Source of the DNA: Polaribacter sp.
Lineage (GTDB): Bacteria > Bacteroidota > Bacteroidia > Flavobacteriales > Flavobacteriaceae
Length of the DNA stretch: 39,547 nucleotides
Assembly: GCA_047622545.1 (NCBI GenBank)
Contig: JBLHOD010000001.1
Span: forward strand, 1 to 39,547
Direction of reading: 5' to 3'
The position numbers and the translations under genes are program-made. Position 1 is the first letter of the stretch, and the number at the start of each line of letters is the position of its first letter. Positions 8,830 through 39,547 of this stretch are shown here, piece by piece. The notes beneath the pieces are model-generated. The model did no database searches. It was not told the origin of the DNA and saw only the letters and a program-made list of their open reading frames with translations.

Positions 8830-9306
8830 ATGAGTAAAGCAAATTTAAAAGTTATCAAAGGTGATGGGGAAGAAAAAAAAGTAAATTCAAATCTTTATGA
8901 GATTTTGAAAAAGCTTCCGGCTCCAATTGTAAAAATGAAATTAACGGTGGACCAAAAATATTGGTACAACTATTTTGGTACTCAATTAATCGAATCCGAA
9001 AAACTAACAAAACCAGATTTAATTCATCTTCATAGATTATCAACTTCTGTAGATTATTACATTCAAGCAGAAAATGAAATTCGTAAAAAAGGATTTCATG
9101 GTGGATTAATTCAAACCTTCAAAGGTGGAGCAACAAACGTTTCTGGATACGTTACAATTCGCGAAAAAATGCTAAAAGATATTGATGAATTATCTAAACA
9201 TTTTGGCTTCAGTTTCAAAGATAGATCAAAGCTTCAAGAAACATCAAATACTAATCCAGGACAAACTTCATTATTTGATGAATTCTTAAAAGCTAAACAT
9301 GGATAA
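8830..9306 (+). CDS. terS: Terminase small subunit, P27 family
   Basis: Follows HNH; C-terminal LSKHFGFSFKDRSKL matches the P27-type 'FG.TP..R..L' pattern. Confidence 0.8.
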   Translation: MSKANLKVIKGDGEEKKVNSNLYEILKKLPAPIVKMKLTVDQKYWYNYFGTQLIESEKLTKPDLIHLHRLSTSVDYYIQAENEIRKKGFHGGLIQTFKGGATNVSGYVTIREKMLKDIDELSKHFGFSFKDRSKLQETSNTNPGQTSLFDEFLKAKHG

Positions 9307-9308
9307 TT

Positions 9309-9374
9309 ATGAAACTAACAAAAATATTTTTTCTAACATTTTTTTTATCATTTTCTGTAATGGCTTTTGGATAA
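9309..9374 (+). pseudogene. 21-aa signal-peptide-like ORF ending at the first cassette core site
   Basis: MKLTKIFFLTFFLSFSVMAFG* starts 2 nt after the terS stop; its stop TAA is part of GGATAAC. Confidence 0.35.
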
Positions 9375-9396
9375 CGTTCCCACGATAGGGGCTTTT

Positions 9397-9596
9397 GGAT
9401 AACAGCGGAAAAGAGCTTGAAGTAGTTGCTGAATTAATAACTAAACAAAATAAACAAAAACAAATGATTAAGATAGATTATAAAGAAAGAGCAGAAGATT
9501 TAGCTAATGACAACATTAAGTTAATGGACAAAAACTCTAGTCTAAACTCTGAAAATGAAAAACTTAAAATGCAATTACTACAAGCTAATGTTGTAG
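9397..9596. repeat. attC-like hairpin A (long loop containing an ATG)
   Basis: GGATAAC 9397-9403; arms AGCTTGAAGTAGTTGC / GCAATTACTACAAGCT; GTTGTAG 9590-9596. Confidence 0.7.
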
Positions 9597-9706
9597 GGCA
9601 AAGCGAACAGTTAAAAAAGTTTTGGGAATATTTCGATAAAGAAAGTATTGCTATTAACTGCAATGATAAAGAACGTGACCAAGTGATAAAAGACTTTTTT
9701 AATTGA
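9464..9706 (+). CDS. 80-aa protein starting inside hairpin A and ending at hairpin B
   Basis: ATG 9464 after an A-rich leader (ORF track starts at TTG 9395); crosses the core as ..ANVVGQSEQL..; TGA 9704-9706 abuts CTACAAC. Confidence 0.65.
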   Translation: MIKIDYKERAEDLANDNIKLMDKNSSLNSENEKLKMQLLQANVVGQSEQLKKFWEYFDKESIAINCNDKERDQVIKDFFN

Positions 9707-9842
9707 CTACAACGGTTCTCGGCTTTGTCGTCGTTGTGGCGATTTAAGACCAAACTTAACAAATAACAACTAATTTTTAAATTAAAAACTATGAATACAA
9801 ATAAAGACCAAGTGCCACAATGCGACAAAACCGCTGTTGGCA
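9707..9842. repeat. attC-like hairpin B
   Basis: CTACAAC 9707-9713; arms CTTTGTCGTCGTTGTGGC / GCCACAATGCGACAAAA; GTTGGCA 9836-9842. Confidence 0.8.
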
Positions 9843-9846
9843 GTAG

Positions 9847-10314
9847 TTATTTATCATCTATCAAAACGAATAAAGTTTTTGAAGAAAAAGCAATTATTAT
9901 TTCATATTTGAGATACCATGATCTAAATGTTCCATTCTCTTCATCTCTGTAAGCATTTAAGTCATTTTGGTCAAATTCTTTTTGATATACAAAATCTTCT
10001 CCCAAAACAGAATAAAATAAATTAATTAAATCTCTCACATCTTTTTCATCAGCATCATTTTTAGATAAAAAAATTGACCTTTTACCATTCGCTTTTTCGG
10101 ATAAACTTATATATTCAAAAGGCTTTTCACCTTCATTTAGGTTTAAATCGGAAACTTTAATAACATTCTTTAATTCATCATCAATAGTTACTTCACCAAC
10201 TTCCATTTCCTCATGATTATAATCATAGGGGTTAACATTAAGTTCTGTTAAAATACTATCTAATTTTGAAGAATTATTGTTATTATCACTTTTTAAAAAA
10301 TCAAAAAATCCCAT
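9847..10314 (-). CDS. Cassette gene: acidic hypothetical protein
   Basis: 155-aa ORF with MGFFDFLK start; stop 11 bp from the GTT core. Confidence 0.8.
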   Translation of the reverse strand: MGFFDFLKSDNNNNSSKLDSILTELNVNPYDYNHEEMEVGEVTIDDELKNVIKVSDLNLNEGEKPFEYISLSEKANGKRSIFLSKNDADEKDVRDLINLFYSVLGEDFVYQKEFDQNDLNAYRDEENGTFRSWYLKYEIIIAFSSKTLFVLIDDK

Positions 10315-10363
10315 ATTATATTTTATTATTTAGTTTGTTTTAGACGATTTTCTTTATAATTAC

Positions 10364-10492
10364 TGCTTACGTTGTTGTGTAAGGAAAGTTGCGTGTTTGC
10401 GAGGATTTTCCGAAGGAAAATCAGAAGCTAGCAAACACGCAACTAACTTAGGTTTAGCTAAAACTAGCAATTTTTTTTACACGGTGTTGGCT
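10364..10492. repeat. attC-like hairpin C with nested internal hairpins
   Basis: TGCTTAC (variant core); arms GTGTAAGGAAAGTTGC / GCAATTTTTTTTACAC; GTTGGCT 10486-10492. Confidence 0.78.
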
Positions 10493-10499
10493 GTAGTTT

Positions 10500-10940
10500 T
10501 TATAATTTAAATTTTGGTTTACTTTCAATTCTTTTGATTATTTCTTTAGTTTCTTTTTTTGAATTATACCAAGCTATCCCAAAACAAATAGCCAAAATGA
10601 GAGTAGTTATTGTAAATATTCCATTAAAGAAAAGGTTCCAAGAAGAATTAAACCCTTGAATACTACTCCCTTCAGCTATTGTATTCAGTAATAAAGGCAA
10701 GAAAAGAGCAACAGTGGCAATTGTAAGTTCTTTCCATAAATTATCACTTCCTCTTTTTATTGTATTAAATTCATGTTCATTTAGTGAATAAAAAGTTGAA
10801 TGTCCATCAAAATGCATTTCAGAAGTGGCTTTGGCTTTATTAATTTCTTCAATAGGTAAAGCTTGCGAGTTTTCTTCTTGCCCTTCCGATATTTGACTAT
10901 TTATATCGCTAGGGTTATTAGATTTCGTTTCCATCTGCAT
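10500..10940 (-). CDS. Cassette gene: two-TM membrane protein
   Basis: Two hydrophobic helices; overlaps the upstream gene. Confidence 0.8.
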   Translation of the reverse strand: MQMETKSNNPSDINSQISEGQEENSQALPIEEINKAKATSEMHFDGHSTFYSLNEHEFNTIKRGSDNLWKELTIATVALFLPLLLNTIAEGSSIQGFNSSWNLFFNGIFTITTLILAICFGIAWYNSKKETKEIIKRIESKPKFKL

Positions 10941-11295
10941 CTACTTTTTTACCTAATAACCATGTATATTCAAAAATTACACCTTTATCATTATTAATAC
11001 CAAACACTCTGTAATTAAAAAAAAGGTTTCTACCTTCCAACCATCCAACTCTAATTGGATTTACATTTCCTGTTCCTAACGAATTATTAAAATTCACGAA
11101 ATTTAGACCAATACCGACTTTCTCAAGTTTGTAAGGTTCTAACCTTGTCTCTTTATTTTCTATATCAGCTGTAAATTTAAATTCAGCTAAAAATTGAAAT
11201 TTTGAACCAAGAGAAATTTCAATATTTTCTTTATTTGGGTTTATTAAAGAACCTTTCTCATAAACATCAAGTTCTCCTATTTTAGTTTTTATCAT
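10918..11295 (-). CDS. Cassette gene: small beta-rich protein (DUF6864-like)
   Basis: Alternating beta pattern with NFNNSLGTG..P..VG motif; family call from memory. Confidence 0.6.
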   Translation of the reverse strand: MIKTKIGELDVYEKGSLINPNKENIEISLGSKFQFLAEFKFTADIENKETRLEPYKLEKVGIGLNFVNFNNSLGTGNVNPIRVGWLEGRNLFFNYRVFGINNDKGVIFEYTWLLGKKVDADGNEI

Positions 11296-11336
11296 TGTCT
11301 TGAATTACTTTTATTTTCTCGTGTTGTTTAAATTAC

Positions 11337-11461
11337 AGCCAACGTTATGCCACTTAGTAAGGTTGTGGACTTTTGAAAACGAGTACTTTCGGCTGGAAGT
11401 AAACGTTATTAAAAAAAGGCAATTCCACTACACCCAAAATCTCGATAAATGGCGGTTATGC
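11337..11461. repeat. attC-like hairpin D
   Basis: AGCCAAC 11337-11343; imperfect arms CCACTTAGTAAGGTTGTGG / CCAAAATCTCGATAAATGG; GTTATGC 11455-11461 contains the stop codon of the DUF4435-like gene. Confidence 0.7.
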
Positions 11462-12421
11462 GAAGTTTTCTTGGGGCAAAGATTTTAAATATTTTATTAA
11501 ACTTTCACAAGTTATTGCATTATTAGTAAGTTGAGAAATTGATGTGGAATATTCAAAACGCAATGGAGAAGAATATTTTTTAGGAAAAACGGAATTTTTT
11601 CTTTTGCCAATTTCATCTTGAAATCTATTTAGAAATGAAATTAAAAACTTTAATTCAAATTTACCTCTAAATGTTTTAGACTTATTAACAGATTTGAATA
11701 TTTCCAGTTTTTTATCAAAATTTAAGTCTGTTATTTTGGGTGATTCTGAAAATAAAGTTTCGATATTTTCTTTACTTTTAAGTTCTTCAGGAAATAAAAT
11801 TGTTATTAAATCATTCTTAACAATCTTTTCAAAAATATCACAATTAAAATATCTCTTTAATGTGTCATCAATGTTTAACCTTGTATTCGAATTATTTAGT
11901 TTACGAAAATCATTTTGGCAACTTAACCAAGCATTAAAAAATATTATATTTGAATGGAAAACCTCTTTACAATTAACATACAGATCAATGGCTTGATTGA
12001 AAACAGGACAACTTTTAGGAATATTAAATTCATTTATTAAAATATTTTCAAAAGCTTCATCAATAGTGTAAAAATTTTCTATACTATAAAATGGGGTGAC
12101 ATAAATTTTACCATCTAAATTATTTTCTTCAAAGTCTTTATCTACAAAATACATAGTTGAGGAGTTCGCATATATTACATGATTATTCATTAATTGATGT
12201 AATTTTATTAAATTTCCTTTCCCATTGCAATTATAGTTGAATATCTCATGTTGATGGTTGTAAGATTTAATCCTAAATGAATAATATGATCTATCTTCTT
12301 TACCTTCGTAAAAACAATAGAGATTCTTTTTGTTTTTATTAAAATCTAAGACAAATTCAGTGTAAGCAACTAATTCTGATTCAAGTTCCTTTTTTGCAAT
12401 TTCAATTATATTACTTTCCAT
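11456..12421 (-). CDS. DUF4435-like TOPRIM nuclease (PARIS AriB-like)
   Basis: TOPRIM motifs FYEGKED, GKGNL, FVDKDF, YSIENF, RGKF; 2 bp downstream of an ABC ATPase. Confidence 0.8.
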   Translation of the reverse strand: MESNIIEIAKKELESELVAYTEFVLDFNKNKKNLYCFYEGKEDRSYYSFRIKSYNHQHEIFNYNCNGKGNLIKLHQLMNNHVIYANSSTMYFVDKDFEENNLDGKIYVTPFYSIENFYTIDEAFENILINEFNIPKSCPVFNQAIDLYVNCKEVFHSNIIFFNAWLSCQNDFRKLNNSNTRLNIDDTLKRYFNCDIFEKIVKNDLITILFPEELKSKENIETLFSESPKITDLNFDKKLEIFKSVNKSKTFRGKFELKFLISFLNRFQDEIGKRKNSVFPKKYSSPLRFEYSTSISQLTNNAITCESLIKYLKSLPQENFA

Positions 12422-12423
12422 TT

Positions 12424-13815
12424 TTAATCTATAAATACATTCATACCTATTGCAAAATTTTCTAATTCATTACTAAAAATAAATGGTGAATGAGTTACTG
12501 CTAATAAAAATTTACATTTATCTGATTCCATAACATGAGGCAGTAATTGCTTTTGCCACTTTATTGAAAGTGAAAGTTCAGGTTCATCGAAAAAAATCAT
12601 TAAATCACTAAGGTCTTCAAGATATATTTTAGAAAAGAGTGAAATTATTTGTTTTTCTCCTGATGATAACTGATTAAGTTCAACCTTTTCCTCAGTTTGG
12701 CTATTGTATATATTTAAGGTTACTGAACTTTCATCAAAAAACATTTTTTTACCGACTAAATATTGATTGGTGACTTTTTCAAAATCTTTAATAGAATTAT
12801 CCAATTCTCTTTGACGTAAATAAATATCTTCAAGTTTTGTTAAAAAATATGCAAGTTCAGGTTTAGTTAATAATTCTTTTGAGTCCAAAAGCATTAAAAT
12901 ATTTTCCCTATCAGCTTGCGATAAATTGTTTTTAACACGATTTAAAATAATTTCAATATTATTTCTATTTATATTTAAAATTTCATCTTTAGACAATTTT
13001 GGAAAACCCTCTTGTAATTGGTGTAACATTTCACCAGTTACTTTTGCAAAACCTTTAATTGAACTGTCGTTAATTTTAGAAATAATTTTTCTAATTCTTT
13101 CTTCAACATCCTCCATTCCAAATTGAATTAATGTTTCATCTTCTAGATCTTCTGTTTCTTCTCTTTCATCTTCATCGTCCCACAGCATATTATTCATTTC
13201 GTCATTATGTATTCTTCGTAATTTACCTAAATTATGTAATTCCTCTTCAACTCTTCTGTATGTTGGGAAGTAAATAATATTAGTATTGAATTCTATTTCT
13301 AGAAAACTCACTAATTTTTCTAAACTAGTAAAATCTGGTTGCTTAGAAATTAGGTCTATTAATTCAACTATTAATCCAATAGGAGGATTATTTAATTCTA
13401 CAGCTAACTTATTTTTTCGAACATATTCGTAAATTATTCTATGCTTATCTATATTTTCTTCACTTCTATTTGAAATAAATGAATTTAAGTCTTCGATATT
13501 TAAAATTTTGGTGATTTCAGATTTTAAATTTTTATATCTTAAATTTCTTTTATTATTTAAACTTTCTAAATAACTGTTAAGTTGTAATTTCGTAAAACTA
13601 AATTGGTTATTATCAATAGTTAAGGAAATACTATCAAAGTTTATTTTTAGTAATTTTTTCCACTTTTTGGTAAGAGTAAAGTATAATGAATTAAGTATAG
13701 ATGTTTTACCTAAACCGTTTTCACCCATTAAGATTAATACATTATTATCAAAATGTAAATCAACGTTTTGATATCCAAATAGTTTTTTTATTTTAAAATT
13801 TTGTAAGTTATTCAT
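12424..13815 (-). CDS. AAA_15/AAA_21 ABC-type ATPase (PARIS AriA-like)
   Basis: Walker A GENGLGKT, YFPTYR, signature LSSGEKQ, Walker B FFDEPELSL, H-loop VTHSPF. Confidence 0.9.
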   Translation of the reverse strand: MNNLQNFKIKKLFGYQNVDLHFDNNVLILMGENGLGKTSILNSLYFTLTKKWKKLLKINFDSISLTIDNNQFSFTKLQLNSYLESLNNKRNLRYKNLKSEITKILNIEDLNSFISNRSEENIDKHRIIYEYVRKNKLAVELNNPPIGLIVELIDLISKQPDFTSLEKLVSFLEIEFNTNIIYFPTYRRVEEELHNLGKLRRIHNDEMNNMLWDDEDEREETEDLEDETLIQFGMEDVEERIRKIISKINDSSIKGFAKVTGEMLHQLQEGFPKLSKDEILNINRNNIEIILNRVKNNLSQADRENILMLLDSKELLTKPELAYFLTKLEDIYLRQRELDNSIKDFEKVTNQYLVGKKMFFDESSVTLNIYNSQTEEKVELNQLSSGEKQIISLFSKIYLEDLSDLMIFFDEPELSLSIKWQKQLLPHVMESDKCKFLLAVTHSPFIFSNELENFAIGMNVFID

Positions 13816-13870
13816 TTTTGTTTTTCTAAATTTTGTTTAATAAATATGAGTTCTTATGAGTAAAAATGTA

Positions 13871-14115
13871 GCATAACGTCAGTATGTAAAAAATTAAAAT
13901 CAAACTCTTGAGAATCCCATATTTGAGATTGTTCTTTGGAGTTCTTTGAATACTTTCTAGATTTGAAGAGATTTTTTCACAGCCTGACGTTTTTCAGCTT
14001 GCGAAAGTTGCGTTTTACAGCACCAAGCCTTTACAAATATACACTAACTTTTAAATTTAAAAATATATTTATAGACACTTCCTAAACTAGCCACTTTTAC
14101 AAACAGCTGTTGTGT
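13871..14115. repeat. attC-like hairpin E with two alternative left cores
   Basis: GCATAAC 13871-13877 and GCCTGAC 13982-13988; arm GCTTGCGAAAGTTGC vs GCCACTTTTACAAAC; GTTGTGT 14109-14115. Confidence 0.65.
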
Positions 14116-14124
14116 GTTCGGTTT

Positions 14125-14493
14125 TTATTCTTTTTCTGATAGTTTTATATTAATATAACATAAAAAAGCTCCAATTATTCTCAAAACAGAGTTCCAAATA
14201 CCAACATTTTCTCTGTTAGTTGAGAACAAGTAATAATCACCAACAATAACGATTAATACCCAAATAATTAAAAATATATTCAATGTTTGGATTTTAAATT
14301 TTGGTGCAATAAGATAGACAGGAACAATAAAAAACAATCCTTGTAGTAAAAATAAAGAACCGTTCAATAAAAAAGAATTTGCAAATGTATTACTAGACAA
14401 AAAAAGTTGCACAAGTTGTTGATATAAATATGGAAATATTATTGAGCATATTATTGATACTGGTAAAACTAAAATCCAACGAAGTATATTCAT
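14125..14493 (-). CDS. Cassette gene: four-TM membrane protein
   Basis: Four hydrophobic segments; stop 16 bp from the GTT core. Confidence 0.8.
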   Translation of the reverse strand: MNILRWILVLPVSIICSIIFPYLYQQLVQLFLSSNTFANSFLLNGSLFLLQGLFFIVPVYLIAPKFKIQTLNIFLIIWVLIVIVGDYYLFSTNRENVGIWNSVLRIIGAFLCYINIKLSEKE

Positions 14494-14643
14494 AAAAGTG
14501 GTTTAATATCGAATACAATATTAAAATAAAAAAAGTTAAGAATTTTACGGTTTCCCGTAAAGCATTTAAAAATTAATTATGAGGTTTAATATTCCTCCTT
14601 AAAAATTATGTCTATAAATAAAAAACAAAATTTTAATTCATAG

Positions 14644-14699
14644 TGGTTTTTCAGAAGGAAAAACCAAGCCTAAACTGTTTTTGCTAACCGTTGTTGGCA
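14644..14699. repeat. Degenerate attC-like site F (right half only recognisable)
   Basis: Internal hairpin TGGTTTTTC-AGAAG-GAAAAACCA similar to that in site C; GTTGGCA 14693-14699. Confidence 0.5.
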
Positions 14700-14716
14700 T
14701 AAGATTATTATTTTAT

Positions 14717-15292
14717 TTAATTATTGCTATTTATTTCATATATAGAATTAAAATCATTTATGAAATTATTTTTTTCGAAATATAAATATTTGTTTTCCAG
14801 TTTGTTATATTCTAATTTATTATCTATGTCTTTTAAAAAACCATTAAGGTATTTAGTTGTTAAATTTGTTTTATAATATTTAGTATCAACAGCTATTATG
14901 TTCTTTTCTAAATTATAATCAAAATTCATACCTTCAGAATCATAATACTCTGCTAAAATGAATAATGAATATCCATTTTTTAAACAATAGGATTGAATAA
15001 TTTCGAGTGGATAACAAACTTTACTTTTACATTTTGAACCCCAAATATATACAATTGATTTTTCGTTTTTGAGTAAACATTTTTTTAAAGTTAAACCATC
15101 TGTTATAAAAATAAAATTTTCAATTTTTGAATATTTACCACAGATTGTATCAGTATTTTTTGTTTTGATAAATAAGTTTGGACTTTCTTTCTTTGTCTTG
15201 TTATAATAACTATAAAGGCCTTGAAAACCTCCATTAAATGAACAAGAAGTAATAATTAAACAAATAACAGTAAGATAAAATATTTTTTTCAT
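14717..15292 (-). CDS. Cassette gene: lipoprotein, possibly thioredoxin-like fold
   Basis: Lipobox-like IITSC; IVYIWGSKCKSKVC resembles a W..C..C redoxin motif. Confidence 0.7.
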   Translation of the reverse strand: MKKIFYLTVICLIITSCSFNGGFQGLYSYYNKTKKESPNLFIKTKNTDTICGKYSKIENFIFITDGLTLKKCLLKNEKSIVYIWGSKCKSKVCYPLEIIQSYCLKNGYSLFILAEYYDSEGMNFDYNLEKNIIAVDTKYYKTNLTTKYLNGFLKDIDNKLEYNKLENKYLYFEKNNFINDFNSIYEINSNN

Positions 15293-15305
15293 ATTAATTT
15301 AGTTT

Positions 15306-15340
15306 AAAACAAGGTTGAAGTAAATAATTCAACCTTGTTT
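15306..15340. terminator. Strong hairpin between the two lipoprotein genes
   Basis: AAAACAAGGTTGAA ... TTCAACCTTGTTTT inverted repeat. Confidence 0.65.
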
Positions 15341-15350
15341 TGTTGTTTTT

Positions 15351-15872
15351 TTAATTTTCTAAAGCATTAATAATGTAACCACCAAAGTTACCTACACTTG
15401 AGTCAAATTGATATTCACCTTTAAGTAAAGTTGTCTTAACACTACTTATGTTATTATCAATATATAATGTTTGACGATTATTAATTGCATTTAAATGTTC
15501 GCTTTTTGTAGGGTCTAATTTAATTGTTAAATATCCAGTTTTTGTTTCATCATATATAATGATTTCACCACCGTTTACAACTCTATTTTGATCATAACAG
15601 TCAACAACCACGCCATGTTCAGTACAGCAAAACCAGCAATCAACATAATTACATAATCCAAAGCCACTACAGCTTTTACTTGTTCTACCCCAGCTATCCC
15701 AATCTGCATAATGAAAATGAAATTCTTTTTCCTTTTTTAGATAATTTTCATTAATATTATTTTCAGTTGAATCTACTGAATTAATTATGGTTTCTTCATT
15801 TTCAGAACATGATGTAAATATTAAAAAAATGATAAAACACATTAAACTTATTGTTGAAAATATTTTTTTCAT
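15351..15872 (-). CDS. Cassette gene: Cys-rich lipoprotein
   Basis: Lipobox-like IFTSC; WGRTSKSCSGFGLC..CWFCC. Confidence 0.75.
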   Translation of the reverse strand: MKKIFSTISLMCFIIFLIFTSCSENEETIINSVDSTENNINENYLKKEKEFHFHYADWDSWGRTSKSCSGFGLCNYVDCWFCCTEHGVVVDCYDQNRVVNGGEIIIYDETKTGYLTIKLDPTKSEHLNAINNRQTLYIDNNISSVKTTLLKGEYQFDSSVGNFGGYIINALEN

Positions 15873-16069
15873 AATTGATATTTTACCCTATTATTAATTC
15901 GGTCTACCGAAAGGACGACAACTTTAGGCACAATTTTGTTTTAAGTTAATTTGTACCGCCCTGTTGGTTTACTAACTTTTACTTATTACTAACTTTTCGT
16001 TTTTCCTTGAATGAATTCTATTGTATCTTCAAGCGATTCGTCCTTTTAGCAATGTTTTTCAAAATTTTC

Positions 16070-16200
16070 TGCCAACGATTAGTATATGAAAAGTAGATAA
16101 TTCCGAAGCACAAAACTTTCGGTTAAGTACAAACTTTGATACGAGCTAAAAGTATTTAATTCATTACTAATTCGCCTATTTTTTATATACACTGTTGTAG
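16070..16200. repeat. attC-like hairpin G
   Basis: TGCCAAC 16070-16076; arms GTATATGAAAAGTAG / CTATTTTTTATATAC; GTTGTAG 16194-16200. Confidence 0.8.
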
Positions 16201-16267
16201 CACGTTTTGTATTACAATCCGTAATACAAATTTTATTTTTTCAAAGCAAACTTTAATTTCGAAAATA

Positions 16268-16525
16268 TTAGAAATTAAGGCCTAATTCTTTTAATTTAAT
16301 TTTTATTTCTTCTGTTTGATTTTTTATTTTAAACATCTCGTTTCTGTCAGTAGAAGTATCAATATAAACAAAAGCGTCAGAATCATTTATTAATTCTATT
16401 ATTGTATAAAGTTGCGAATATACAAACCCATAACAATCTTTAAAATATTGCTTGTTTTCAATTTCGTTTAGTTGATATTCTTTTTCTCCGTCAAAGAATA
16501 TTATATTTAATATTGGTTCTGTCAT
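16268..16525 (-). CDS. Cassette gene: small acidic hypothetical protein
   Basis: 85-aa ORF between site G and half-site H. Confidence 0.7.
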   Translation of the reverse strand: MTEPILNIIFFDGEKEYQLNEIENKQYFKDCYGFVYSQLYTIIELINDSDAFVYIDTSTDRNEMFKIKNQTEEIKIKLKELGLNF

Positions 16526-16539
16526 TTTTTTTTAAAATT

Positions 16540-16580
16540 CCTATTTCGCCATACCAAACCGTAGTTGTGTGTTCGGCTTT
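16540..16580. repeat. Half attC-like site H
   Basis: GTTGTGTGTTCGG at 16564-16576 is identical to 14109-14121; no left arm seen. Confidence 0.5.
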
Positions 16581-17080
16581 TATAATTTGAATAAACTTTT
16601 TTAACATTTTTTAAGTAAAAAGTATTTTTATAAACCAATACTTATAACACCTTTTTTTTATGATAAATTAATTATTATATTTTCAAAATTAGAATTTTTT
16701 TTTCAAAAAACTAATAATATACGGAAGAAAGATTACGGTTTAACCGTATTTTTTATTAGCTCATTTACACAATAATAATAACCATAATAAAGCTACTTTT
16801 ATAATTTAAATTAAACGCAATTTTGTTTTATAAGTTGGCAGTGTTTTATTCAAACATTTACCACGATAATTCAACAAAGATATAATTTATCATTTGTTGC
16901 ATTAAGTTATTGAATGCTCACGCGTTTTTCTCAATTCATTGCTAACTCAAATATATCCGAAAATATAAAAAACAAATTAAGTTATTTTATTAATATTCAG
17001 TACATTATTAGAGTATAATTAAACGAACAAAATTCGTTTTTATTTTTGATACTTAGATCAAATATAAACTTTTAGTATTT

Positions 17081-18784
17081 CTAAATAACTGTAGGATCAC
17101 TCATGTTAAATTCTCCTTCAGAAGTTACAAACTTGGTCCAGGTTGGTCGCATTACTAAATATTTGAATGCATCTGAATAATTGGTAGAATACATCGGTCG
17201 TAAATGCATGGCTAATTTTTCAGAAGATTTGTCTTTATATATTTTTGACGCTCCAGTTCTATCTCTTCTATTGTCAATTTTGGTCAACTCAATAGAACTT
17301 TTTACACATTTACAATTGAATTTGTCAATTTTTAATTTTGGTAAACCTTTCACAGTTTCGCCCATCATTCCTTTAACAAAATTATACTCATCTTCTTGCA
17401 AAATTGTTCCTTGGCCAACGCTCATTAATTCAACATACCAACCGGTAGAGTTTCCAAATTCATCATACTCAATTGCTTTTTTTAGCGCAGAAGCCCAATC
17501 TCGTTTGGTATTTGCGTTTTGATTTCCCGAACGGTCATAATACAATTTTAGTTTTTTTAATTTATGATATTTATAGTATTCTCTATATTGTTTTCCCAAT
17601 TGTATTTCATTCTCTGGAGCAAGCGTATGAAATTCTTTTAATAAATATAAATATTCTCCTCTAGGTTGTGCTGTAACCATACTGCACATTCCTCCAAAAT
17701 CTACACCCGCTTCTAATTCTTGATTATGATCAATATACCTTAAAGCTAGTGAGCTTTCTTCAATAGTATCTAAAATTCCAAATTTATCATAATAAGAATT
17801 TATGGTTCCATCTTCAAAAAAATGATGCTCTCCAAGATTGCCATAAAACTTTTCACCTTTTGTTAAATTGACTTTAAAGGACAAAATAGCACTTTTAAAT
17901 TCTTCGATTCCAAGAGCTTTTAAACTGTCTTTAAAAAATCCTTGCGTTAAAACATCCACATTTACAAAAGAAGAAACAACATAAAAAAATGTCAAATCTT
18001 TACGAGCTCTTATCCAACGCTCTCGCCATCTACCTAAATTTTTTCTTAATTGCTCAACCTTAATTTTATCATTGTCTTTTTGAGCATTATACAATTCAAT
18101 GTTAATTTCATTTAACACCAGGGCACAATTCAAAGCCAATTTCACCTGGTCTAAGTCCATGTCTTTTTCATGCTGCATTATCCAATCTTCATCACCATCT
18201 AAAATATTAGGCATATCGGTGGTAAATGTTCGACCTCTATAAAAAACAGAATGGCCAAACTGTGCATATTCTCCACGAATTGCTGGATTTAGCTTTTTAA
18301 GTTTTTGAAATTTTAACAAACGAGCTTCATCCCCAAAAATATGTTGAAATGAATCTCCAGCCAAACCTGAAGGTTGATCTAAACTTCCAAGACTAAACAT
18401 ACATCCATTGTAAATAGATATGGTATGTTTGAAACTTTCGACTGGCTTGTAGTTTAATTTAAAATGATTTGGAGGTCTTTTGTCTGTTACATAATGAATT
18501 CCTTCTTTCCATCCTTCACGGTTCCAACCCTCAATAAGTGTTGGAACTACATTACGCATTGCATTTACATACGTATCAGAAACAAATACACTACGACTGC
18601 GTGGCATATCTTCTACAACATTAATAGATCGCTTTGCAATTATTTCTGATGTTTTGGCAGTTGCACGACCAGCAATTCCGTAAAAATCTTTTGGCTGAAT
18701 TAAATCTACTAAAATCGTAAACCAATTAGCATAAATAGATTCTATATTTATGTCATCAGCCTTTACGTGGGTTTTCCGACTCAT
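17081..18784 (-). CDS. terL: Terminase large subunit of prophage B
   Basis: Walker A-like AGRATAKT, Walker B IFGDEA, RNase H-like nuclease motifs AGVDFG, YYDRSG, YSDAFKY. Confidence 0.88.
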   Translation of the reverse strand: MSRKTHVKADDINIESIYANWFTILVDLIQPKDFYGIAGRATAKTSEIIAKRSINVVEDMPRSRSVFVSDTYVNAMRNVVPTLIEGWNREGWKEGIHYVTDKRPPNHFKLNYKPVESFKHTISIYNGCMFSLGSLDQPSGLAGDSFQHIFGDEARLLKFQKLKKLNPAIRGEYAQFGHSVFYRGRTFTTDMPNILDGDEDWIMQHEKDMDLDQVKLALNCALVLNEINIELYNAQKDNDKIKVEQLRKNLGRWRERWIRARKDLTFFYVVSSFVNVDVLTQGFFKDSLKALGIEEFKSAILSFKVNLTKGEKFYGNLGEHHFFEDGTINSYYDKFGILDTIEESSLALRYIDHNQELEAGVDFGGMCSMVTAQPRGEYLYLLKEFHTLAPENEIQLGKQYREYYKYHKLKKLKLYYDRSGNQNANTKRDWASALKKAIEYDEFGNSTGWYVELMSVGQGTILQEDEYNFVKGMMGETVKGLPKLKIDKFNCKCVKSSIELTKIDNRRDRTGASKIYKDKSSEKLAMHLRPMYSTNYSDAFKYLVMRPTWTKFVTSEGEFNMSDPTVI

Positions 18785-39372: not shown

Positions 39373-39420
39373 TAACACGAACTAACTATAATTAACTGTT
39401 AATCAGTGTGCAATTGATTT

Positions 39421-39435
39421 CTGGCGCGATCACAA
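39421..39435 (+). repeat. attR core CTGGCGCGATCACAA
   Basis: Exact copy of 113-127. Confidence 0.9.
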
Positions 39436-39464
39436 AAAAAGCCTTGCATTTGCAAGGTTTTTTT
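39434..39464 (+). terminator. Probable original tRNA terminator displaced by integration
   Basis: AAAAAAAGCCTTGC-attt-GCAAGGTTTTTTT. Confidence 0.75.
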
Positions 39465-39547
39465 GTTTATGTTGTGGTTCAGTTTTATTTCTTTTATTTT
39501 AAAGAATATGTTTTTTTAGTAAAAATTTTGTTACAAGTAATTTTTAA

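Follow-up and report, generated by a model that had tools for sequence, protein, structure and literature searches.

Whether a recombination site can also provide the beginning of a protein is the question raised by a stretch of 39,547 nucleotides from Polaribacter sp. (contig JBLHOD010000001.1), here called the window. Its initial annotation had described two hairpins, each with a start codon in the loop and a GTT core read as an in-frame Val codon, and had proposed that such sites supply translation starts and N-termini and that exchange at the core generates fusion proteins combinatorially. Comparison with viral, host and cultured phage loci indicates real, reproducible modular genes across integron-like sites, in which movement of whole genes appears to be routine and swapping of N- and C-terminal halves secondary.

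The prophage and its hairpin array

The window (1-39,547) is a whole prophage with an integron-like cassette array. The integrase, replication genes, an HNH gene and the terminase small subunit lie on the + strand and the structural genes on the - strand, and the array of hairpins and cargo genes (about 9370-16950) separates the two halves. The features are as follows.

51-125: tRNA-Arg
108-165 and 39416-39473: 58-nt repeat
228-1445: prophage integrase (PF00589)
9401..9592, +: hairpin A, attC-like, with left core AAC (9401-9403), arms, start-bearing loop and right core GTT (9590-9592)
9444..9466, +: A-rich start context and ATG of ORF A
9464..9706, +: ORF A, 80 aa, with a 42-aa N-module in the hairpin and a 38-aa C-module in the mini body
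9590..9612, +: 23-nt junction motif encoding VVGQSEQL, with a second AAC-N-GTT inside
9593..9710, +: mini body of cassette A, its two ends partly complementary
9711..9838, +: hairpin B, left core AAC at 9711 and right core GTT at 9836, of a widespread phage hairpin family
9791..9952, +: ORF B, 53 aa, a conserved 15-aa leader that continues into antisense DNA
9847..10314, -: cargo gene for a 155-aa protein, oriented like host cassettes, with hairpin B as its downstream site
10368..10488, +: hairpin C, host-type, with no loop-started ORF
10489..16943: rest of the array, - strand cargo genes (DUF6864; DUF4435 plus AAA ATPase; unknowns) between further hairpins
About 11341-11457, 13875-13991, 13986-14111, 14546-14692 and 16074-16196: further hairpins, some degenerate, read by eye
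16934..16955, -: putative attI-like array end, core AAC at 16944 on +

The prophage integrase is the sole PF00589 match on the contig and lies about 8 kb off the array; a group of at least two attC-like sites with no integrase nearby is what defines a CALIN, and the array fits this. The attI-like end resembles the host consensus imperfectly and is not followed by a recombinase gene. The region of hairpin C is the source of the top host matches, and the query region has matches in 76 of the 90 same-genus genomes. An Rfam search of 9200-17100 returned one chance-level match and no known structured family. In the source run, 9300-9950 lies in one contig with zero differences (probably the window's own source and not an independent one), and the contigs of three DNA runs contained neither a joint in 9300-9950 nor, within the array, an excision junction that could be interpreted.

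The terminase small subunit (8830-9306, +) has no large subunit behind it, whereas relatives at L106-L109 do, and the structural module (17081-39372) is found past the array, on the other strand. Possibly two phage types were joined at the array to give a chimeric prophage; among the examined relatives of the small subunit (L104-L109), the window's array was absent. Within 9309-9403, a 21-codon signal-peptide-like ORF terminates at the TAA of a TAAC core, and a 14-bp direct repeat (9362-9375 and 9390-9403) brackets a weak terminator-like hairpin (9376-9392) just upstream of hairpin A. Within 13875-14111 two hairpins abut, with ACGTT common to both and no body between, as if the body alone was lost. 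The two-gene cassette at 11456-13815 (AAA ATPase plus DUF4435) is a possible defence pair; sequencing run X2 contains a near-identical contig spanning 11434-13853.

Starts in the loops and reassortment of the halves

An A-rich leader and an ATG lie, as first annotated, in the loops of hairpins A (9464) and B (9791), and GTT is an in-frame Val codon at 9590 (+126) and 9836 (+45), respectively. ORF A reads ..LLQAN|VVGQSEQL.. up to a TGA at 9704-9706, 4 nt short of the next AAC core at 9711; the mini body, put at about 115 bp in the annotation, measures 121 nt from GTT to AAC. The AAC..GTT arm finder scored hairpin A at 28.6 and hairpin B at 39.3; when 9301-17000 was shuffled 20 times with dinucleotides preserved, the best arm score never exceeded 26.6. 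By whole-region folding only hairpin B looked significant (z = -2.17 on + and -1.53 on -); hairpin A, with its atypically long left spacer of 10 nt, did not (+0.76 and +0.62) because of its long AT-rich loop, its arm stem nonetheless being in the centroid.

Both loop start contexts look like genuine host starts. Of 827 starts of long host ORFs, 87% score lower than A and 80% lower than B, while only 0.2% and 0.4%, respectively, of 6004 internal ATGs scored as high. Databases give ORF A a longer start (TTG at 9395), and its relatives P0002, P0006 and P0007 begin at the residue equivalent to its ATG. A promoter search for A and B in the prophage gave no signal above chance. ORF A had zero matches in Pfam, PHROGs and NCBIfam and fell only into unnamed clusters of the ESM Atlas (at most 0.90, low recognition).

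The annotation had held that a random frame of loop ATG relative to GTT would refute it. In an unselected set of 100 neighbouring phage hairpins, loop ORFs that continue for 25 codons or more were distributed 27/7/3 over frames 0, +1 and +2; among 40 distinct hairpin-body junctions of cultured phages the counts were 9/3/1, with 27 lacking a loop-started gene, and among 62 hairpins of host arrays 0/2/1. Loop starts are, judging from the frame-0 counts in phage (27/100) versus host hairpins (0/62), a phage-specific adaptation. Frame 0 is nevertheless a majority and not a rule, and partly so because the core consensus blocks the other frames: stops within 4 codons of the core close frames 0, +1 and +2 in 5, 17 and 43 of 99 hairpins, and among the 39 hairpins in which no frame is blocked near the core the distribution (8/4/3) was not significant (p = 0.09).

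In relatives of protein A and in phage loci, one N-half can be followed by different C-halves, and one C-half preceded by different N-halves; constant pairing of the halves would have refuted the annotation. Protein A has seven matches including itself. P0002 keeps its N-half and VVGQSEQL with a different, cysteine-rich C-half; P0003-5 carry its C-half under three unrelated N-halves; P0006 and P0007 have a related N-half with other continuations, P0007 showing no recognisable junction. Reassortment at this junction is known from protein relatives; four loci from a protein-based locus search with ORF A turned out to be unrelated. In a scan with the A arms, of 14 listed loci five belonged to an unrelated long gene and were not used, and two were dropped as duplicate junctions.

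A search for VVG[QR]SEQL, suggested in the annotation, yielded 103 viral loci, of which 89 are distinct. Each of the 83 loci with complete flanks had an ATG in frame ahead of the core and 25 or more codons past it, compared with 0, 0, 1, 6 and 2 in the other five frames; because these loci were picked by a motif known in frame, this is a property of the family and not a general rule. In high-identity pairs the common DNA was either the hairpin only or the body only. A second scan gave 79 loci (67 distinct), with frame 0 in 48 of 65, and a reticulate network: one N-half was paired with two different C-halves, and each C-half was found under other N-halves too. At least two CxxC-like motifs are present in 35 of 86 C-modules of loci L001-L103, which suggests small zinc-binding modules. 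Loci L042 and L101 have an identical partial loop, arm and body, and different non-hairpin DNA joined 48 nt before the core; ordinary genes can apparently fuse into a hairpin loop.

In the B family, 30 loci gave 25 distinct junctions, 24 with an in-frame loop ATG, and only three bodies have their own strong in-frame ATG within the first 25 codons. The bodies that follow the same or a closely related leader are unrelated to each other and 11-210 codons long, with YopX and HD domains among them. These comparisons support the proposal that hairpins supply the start codon and the N-terminus. Over 118 nt, hairpin B of the window and L115 share 98.3% identity, and the value for L140 is 96.3%; the match stops 3 nt past the G of GTT. 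In L115 a sense body of 97 codons follows there. ORF B reads, as described before, into the antisense strand of the cargo gene (9847-10314), to 9952. Since the B leader elsewhere normally stands on sense-strand bodies, the host-type cargo has likely replaced its original C-module, and the product here is probably non-productive. Neither ORF B nor the 155-aa cargo protein matched Pfam or PHROGs; the latter has one distant match (32%).

The moving unit and the candidate recombinase

Cultured Baltic Flavobacterium phages (17 genomes analysed) carry the B family and arrays of about 10-15 hairpins. Between lillamy9-1 and lillamy9-3, a 439-bp hairpin-plus-body unit is relocated to the attI-like array end, with breakpoints in ATAAC. 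For 24 bodies seen at least twice in these genomes, more than one downstream hairpin was found for 13 and more than one upstream hairpin for five, three of the latter being clear hairpin replacements on the same body. Pairwise breakpoints fell at the left core 116 times, at the right core six times and elsewhere eight times, the pairs not being independent. The relocation, the retention of hairpins and the breakpoint counts imply that routine movement keeps N and C together: by these alignments, the moving unit in near-clonal cultured phages is the hairpin plus body, a whole gene cut at the TAAC core, and swaps at the Val-side core appear to be rarer. The simplest form of the earlier proposal, with the crossover at the Val GTT, fails here, the opposite core being used; its claim of fusions keeps the reassortment of halves and loses the Val codon as the place of routine exchange. 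In one swap (body B15) the 8 nt following GTT differ, so that the join was not a clean G|TT. Isolates of Lillamyvirus, Muminvirus and Hattifnattvirus (L158-L174) differ in cassette order and methyltransferase content by whole cassettes.

A candidate enzyme is found in the hosts. On contig C18 a tyrosine recombinase is followed by AAC-NN-GTT and then by cargo genes, each with a hairpin behind it; this chromosomal integron-like locus (G000:C18:5227-13116) has the recombinase co-oriented with the cargo. ATA[TC]AAC-NN-GTT stands behind the recombinase in 27 of 28 parsed relatives (30 in all, 2 unparsed), and 12 of 22 host loci have a hairpin inside the short downstream flank. The C18 protein has 17 aa where VchIntIA (2a3v) has 60, lacking the IntI insertion, and its TIGR02249 score (201.7) is below the cut-off of 265. 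A related small recombinase (263-289 aa, 30-37% identical to the host enzyme) was detected in 9 of 49 phage records, with similarly short spacing at the site of the IntI insertion. In all eight parsed phage loci (one of nine was unparsed) it lies just downstream of the array hairpins and is preceded by an AAC-bearing array end; L106, L405-L409, L411 and L412 are complete phage-borne platforms of array, attI-like end and small tyrosine recombinase. An HxLRH-type recombinase motif was looked for and not found in hemulen6-1, suggesting a host-supplied enzyme. The cassettes are likely moved by a host or phage tyrosine recombinase without the IntI insertion.

Integrons (IntI, attI, attC) share with this system the imperfect AAC/GTT hairpins with R''/R' cores, complementary cassette ends, crossover in AAC, and excision of a gene plus its site with reinsertion at an attI-like site adjoining a tyrosine recombinase, the latter seen here by comparison only (lillamy9-1 versus 9-3). 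An attI-like site beside the recombinase, with variable sequence after G|TT, is found in host and phage loci, the match in the window being imperfect. However, the specific catalytic-domain insertion described for IntI (PMC8138268), about 43 aa, is missing; the recombinase is co-oriented with the cargo in hosts; and the array spacers are asymmetric (mostly 5-7 versus 2-3 nt), unlike those of class 1. Promoterless genes directed away from attI and served by Pc are seen in the host-type cargo, but not in ORFs A and B and the cultured-phage genes, which lie on the strand opposite the host cargo, read towards attI and can start within the site.

Competing explanations and known systems

On a narrow balance we consider it probable that the window is a cassette-array prophage in which a tyrosine recombinase moves whole genes and a rarer Val-side exchange re-pairs the halves. 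Established within this explanation are the anatomy, the frame, the reassortment, the whole-gene unit, the TAAC breakpoint and the conserved attI-like site beside an insertion-less recombinase. The enzyme, of host or phage, would likely move hairpin plus body as one gene. The ORF strand would be the bottom strand, the one that recombines, with the cut at AA|C in the left core (R'), and the genes would consequently be inverted relative to host cargo. The Val GTT would be R'', where occasional top-strand recombination (at G|TT as read along the ORFs), with the same enzyme as its likely agent, could swap bodies. For IntI1, top-strand recombination at R'' is documented at lower frequency, and with attI it is described as producing inversions (PMC5027507); body swaps in the same orientation would need two top strands, which counts against our explanation. 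GTTRRRY often puts stops in the other frames, so that frame 0 would dominate and most pairs of leader and body would be compatible. On large bodies the leader would mainly substitute for the native start, whereas in mini-cassettes of about 120 nt N and C are of similar size and would give chimeric proteins of 70-100 aa. ORF B would be a relic, its body having given way to a host-type cassette.

We put forward more tentatively, and with some doubt, a broader reading, in which the insertion-less integrase would define an unrecognised integron class of Bacteroidota and their phages. Phages would have made a device of two speeds from its cores, one core reordering whole genes and the other acting as a DNA-level exon border that builds new small proteins out of exchangeable N- and C-modules and shows how genes gain attC.

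An unlikely alternative is that the integrase moves whole cassettes and N/C swaps arise by homeologous recombination at the right arm plus a motif of 12-23 nt after GTT. The linker model of phage mosaicism is a parallel for such homology-driven swaps. The 23-nt motif is fixed at the DNA level, constant at synonymous positions though the bodies are unrelated: the first Val is GTT in 96 of 97 junctions (other Val codons there are GTT in 126 of 289), with AGC in 97, GAA in 97 and CAG in 96. In the VVG/VSG family the breakpoint can be resolved only to within this motif, which mostly travels with the C-half (L328/L329/L351, L334/L344b/L366) but does not in L330/L347, L007/L014 and L052/L348, and the window's own copy matches its N-sharer and not its C-sharers; homology-driven exchange therefore stays a live rival. 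Right arms are common to members of hairpin families, and junctions inside loops without a cognate left arm (L042/L101, L122, L114) point to homology-driven events. Against this, one B leader is joined to at least six unrelated post-GTT sequences with identity mostly ending 3-8 nt after the G, and the diagnostic base +6 goes with the body in L334/L344b/L366. A-family swaps at the second AAC-N-GTT were also tested, with mixed results.

We regard as improbable that the joins were made once, at cassette creation, by grafting a hairpin with a disposable leader onto a start-less gene, with no ongoing shuffling and an N-part serving initiation only. Bodies that are 94-96% identical stand under unrelated hairpins, which means that hairpins were replaced after the body existed, and the N-modules of 40-55 aa have low pN/pS. 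The ratios (pN/pS 0.060/0.302 in four N pairs and 0.068/0.514 in seven C pairs, hand-picked for a common half) make both halves look to be under purifying selection. Such joins would, however, account for bodies that match ordinary phage families from profile position 4-5 (three PHROG families in the B family), for short leaders on methyltransferases, and for one hairpin family with many bodies, which resembles the species-specific repeats of chromosomal integrons. Many of the pairs with the same hairpin and different bodies could date from cassette creation and not from later swapping.

Routine crossover at the Val GTT, each rearrangement making a new fusion protein, is very improbable: the sharp ends of identity at GTT in metagenomic loci would fit it, but hairpin and body move together at TAAC in near-clonal cultured phages, attI-like sites and phage recombinases stand at the downstream array end, and identical hairpin-plus-body units recur in differing contexts (the L025 group, L061/L062, L136/L137). 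That loop ORFs are chance frames in AT-rich repeats is hardly credible, since frame 0, though intrinsically least blocked, is absent from host hairpins, start contexts are strong, pN/pS is low and, in cultured phages, a 325-aa methyltransferase is annotated as starting at a B-type loop ATG.

The presence of attC sites and CALINs in virulent phages, including Polaribacter phage P12002L, has already been published (Qi et al. 2023, PMC9892861). P12002L_attC1, between methyltransferase genes, has the TAAC..GTT geometry seen here and, of six sites, was the only one not confirmed with IntI1. Section 3.4, term searches and supplement rows of the paper do not mention start codons in sites ('start codon' gave 0 matches). 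Our arm finder sees five such hairpins in the P12002L genome, and one annotated gene there, P12002L_0037, has its ATG in a hairpin loop and passes through an in-frame GTT 135 nt further on. In the gcuF1-blaOXA-28 fusion (PMC3375312) and in ORF-11 of attI1 (PMC8876359), as described in those sources, a recombination site in frame likewise supplies or extends an N-terminus; these are single cases on the cargo strand, starting from an upstream gene or attI, whereas here the start is in the loop, on the opposite strand, and both halves reassort in many phages. Synthetic attC sites built into coding sequence so that modules can be shuffled (Nivina et al. 2020, PMC7439510) also lie in frame inside a protein; they are engineered and proposed as a tool, of which the phage case would be a natural counterpart. 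A literature search covering few subscription papers found no description of loop starts, N/C reassortment or the recombinase class.

The system is a possible route for phages to make orphan microproteins and to exchange methyltransferases. Occurrence of the same body under different hairpins bears on how integron cassettes are created. With homologues of the C18 recombinase in 44 of 60 genus genomes, the combination of recombinase and array appears to be widespread and largely missed by standard integron tools; for Bacteroidetes, IntegronFinder 2 reported a single complete integron (PMC9024848). Pairs of phage and host are in culture and could serve for experiments. In the accessible text on the Baltic Flavobacterium phages (Nilsson et al. 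2020, PMC7077304), the words 'integron' and 'cassette' are absent, and methyltransferase content is linked to plating efficiency in these isolates.
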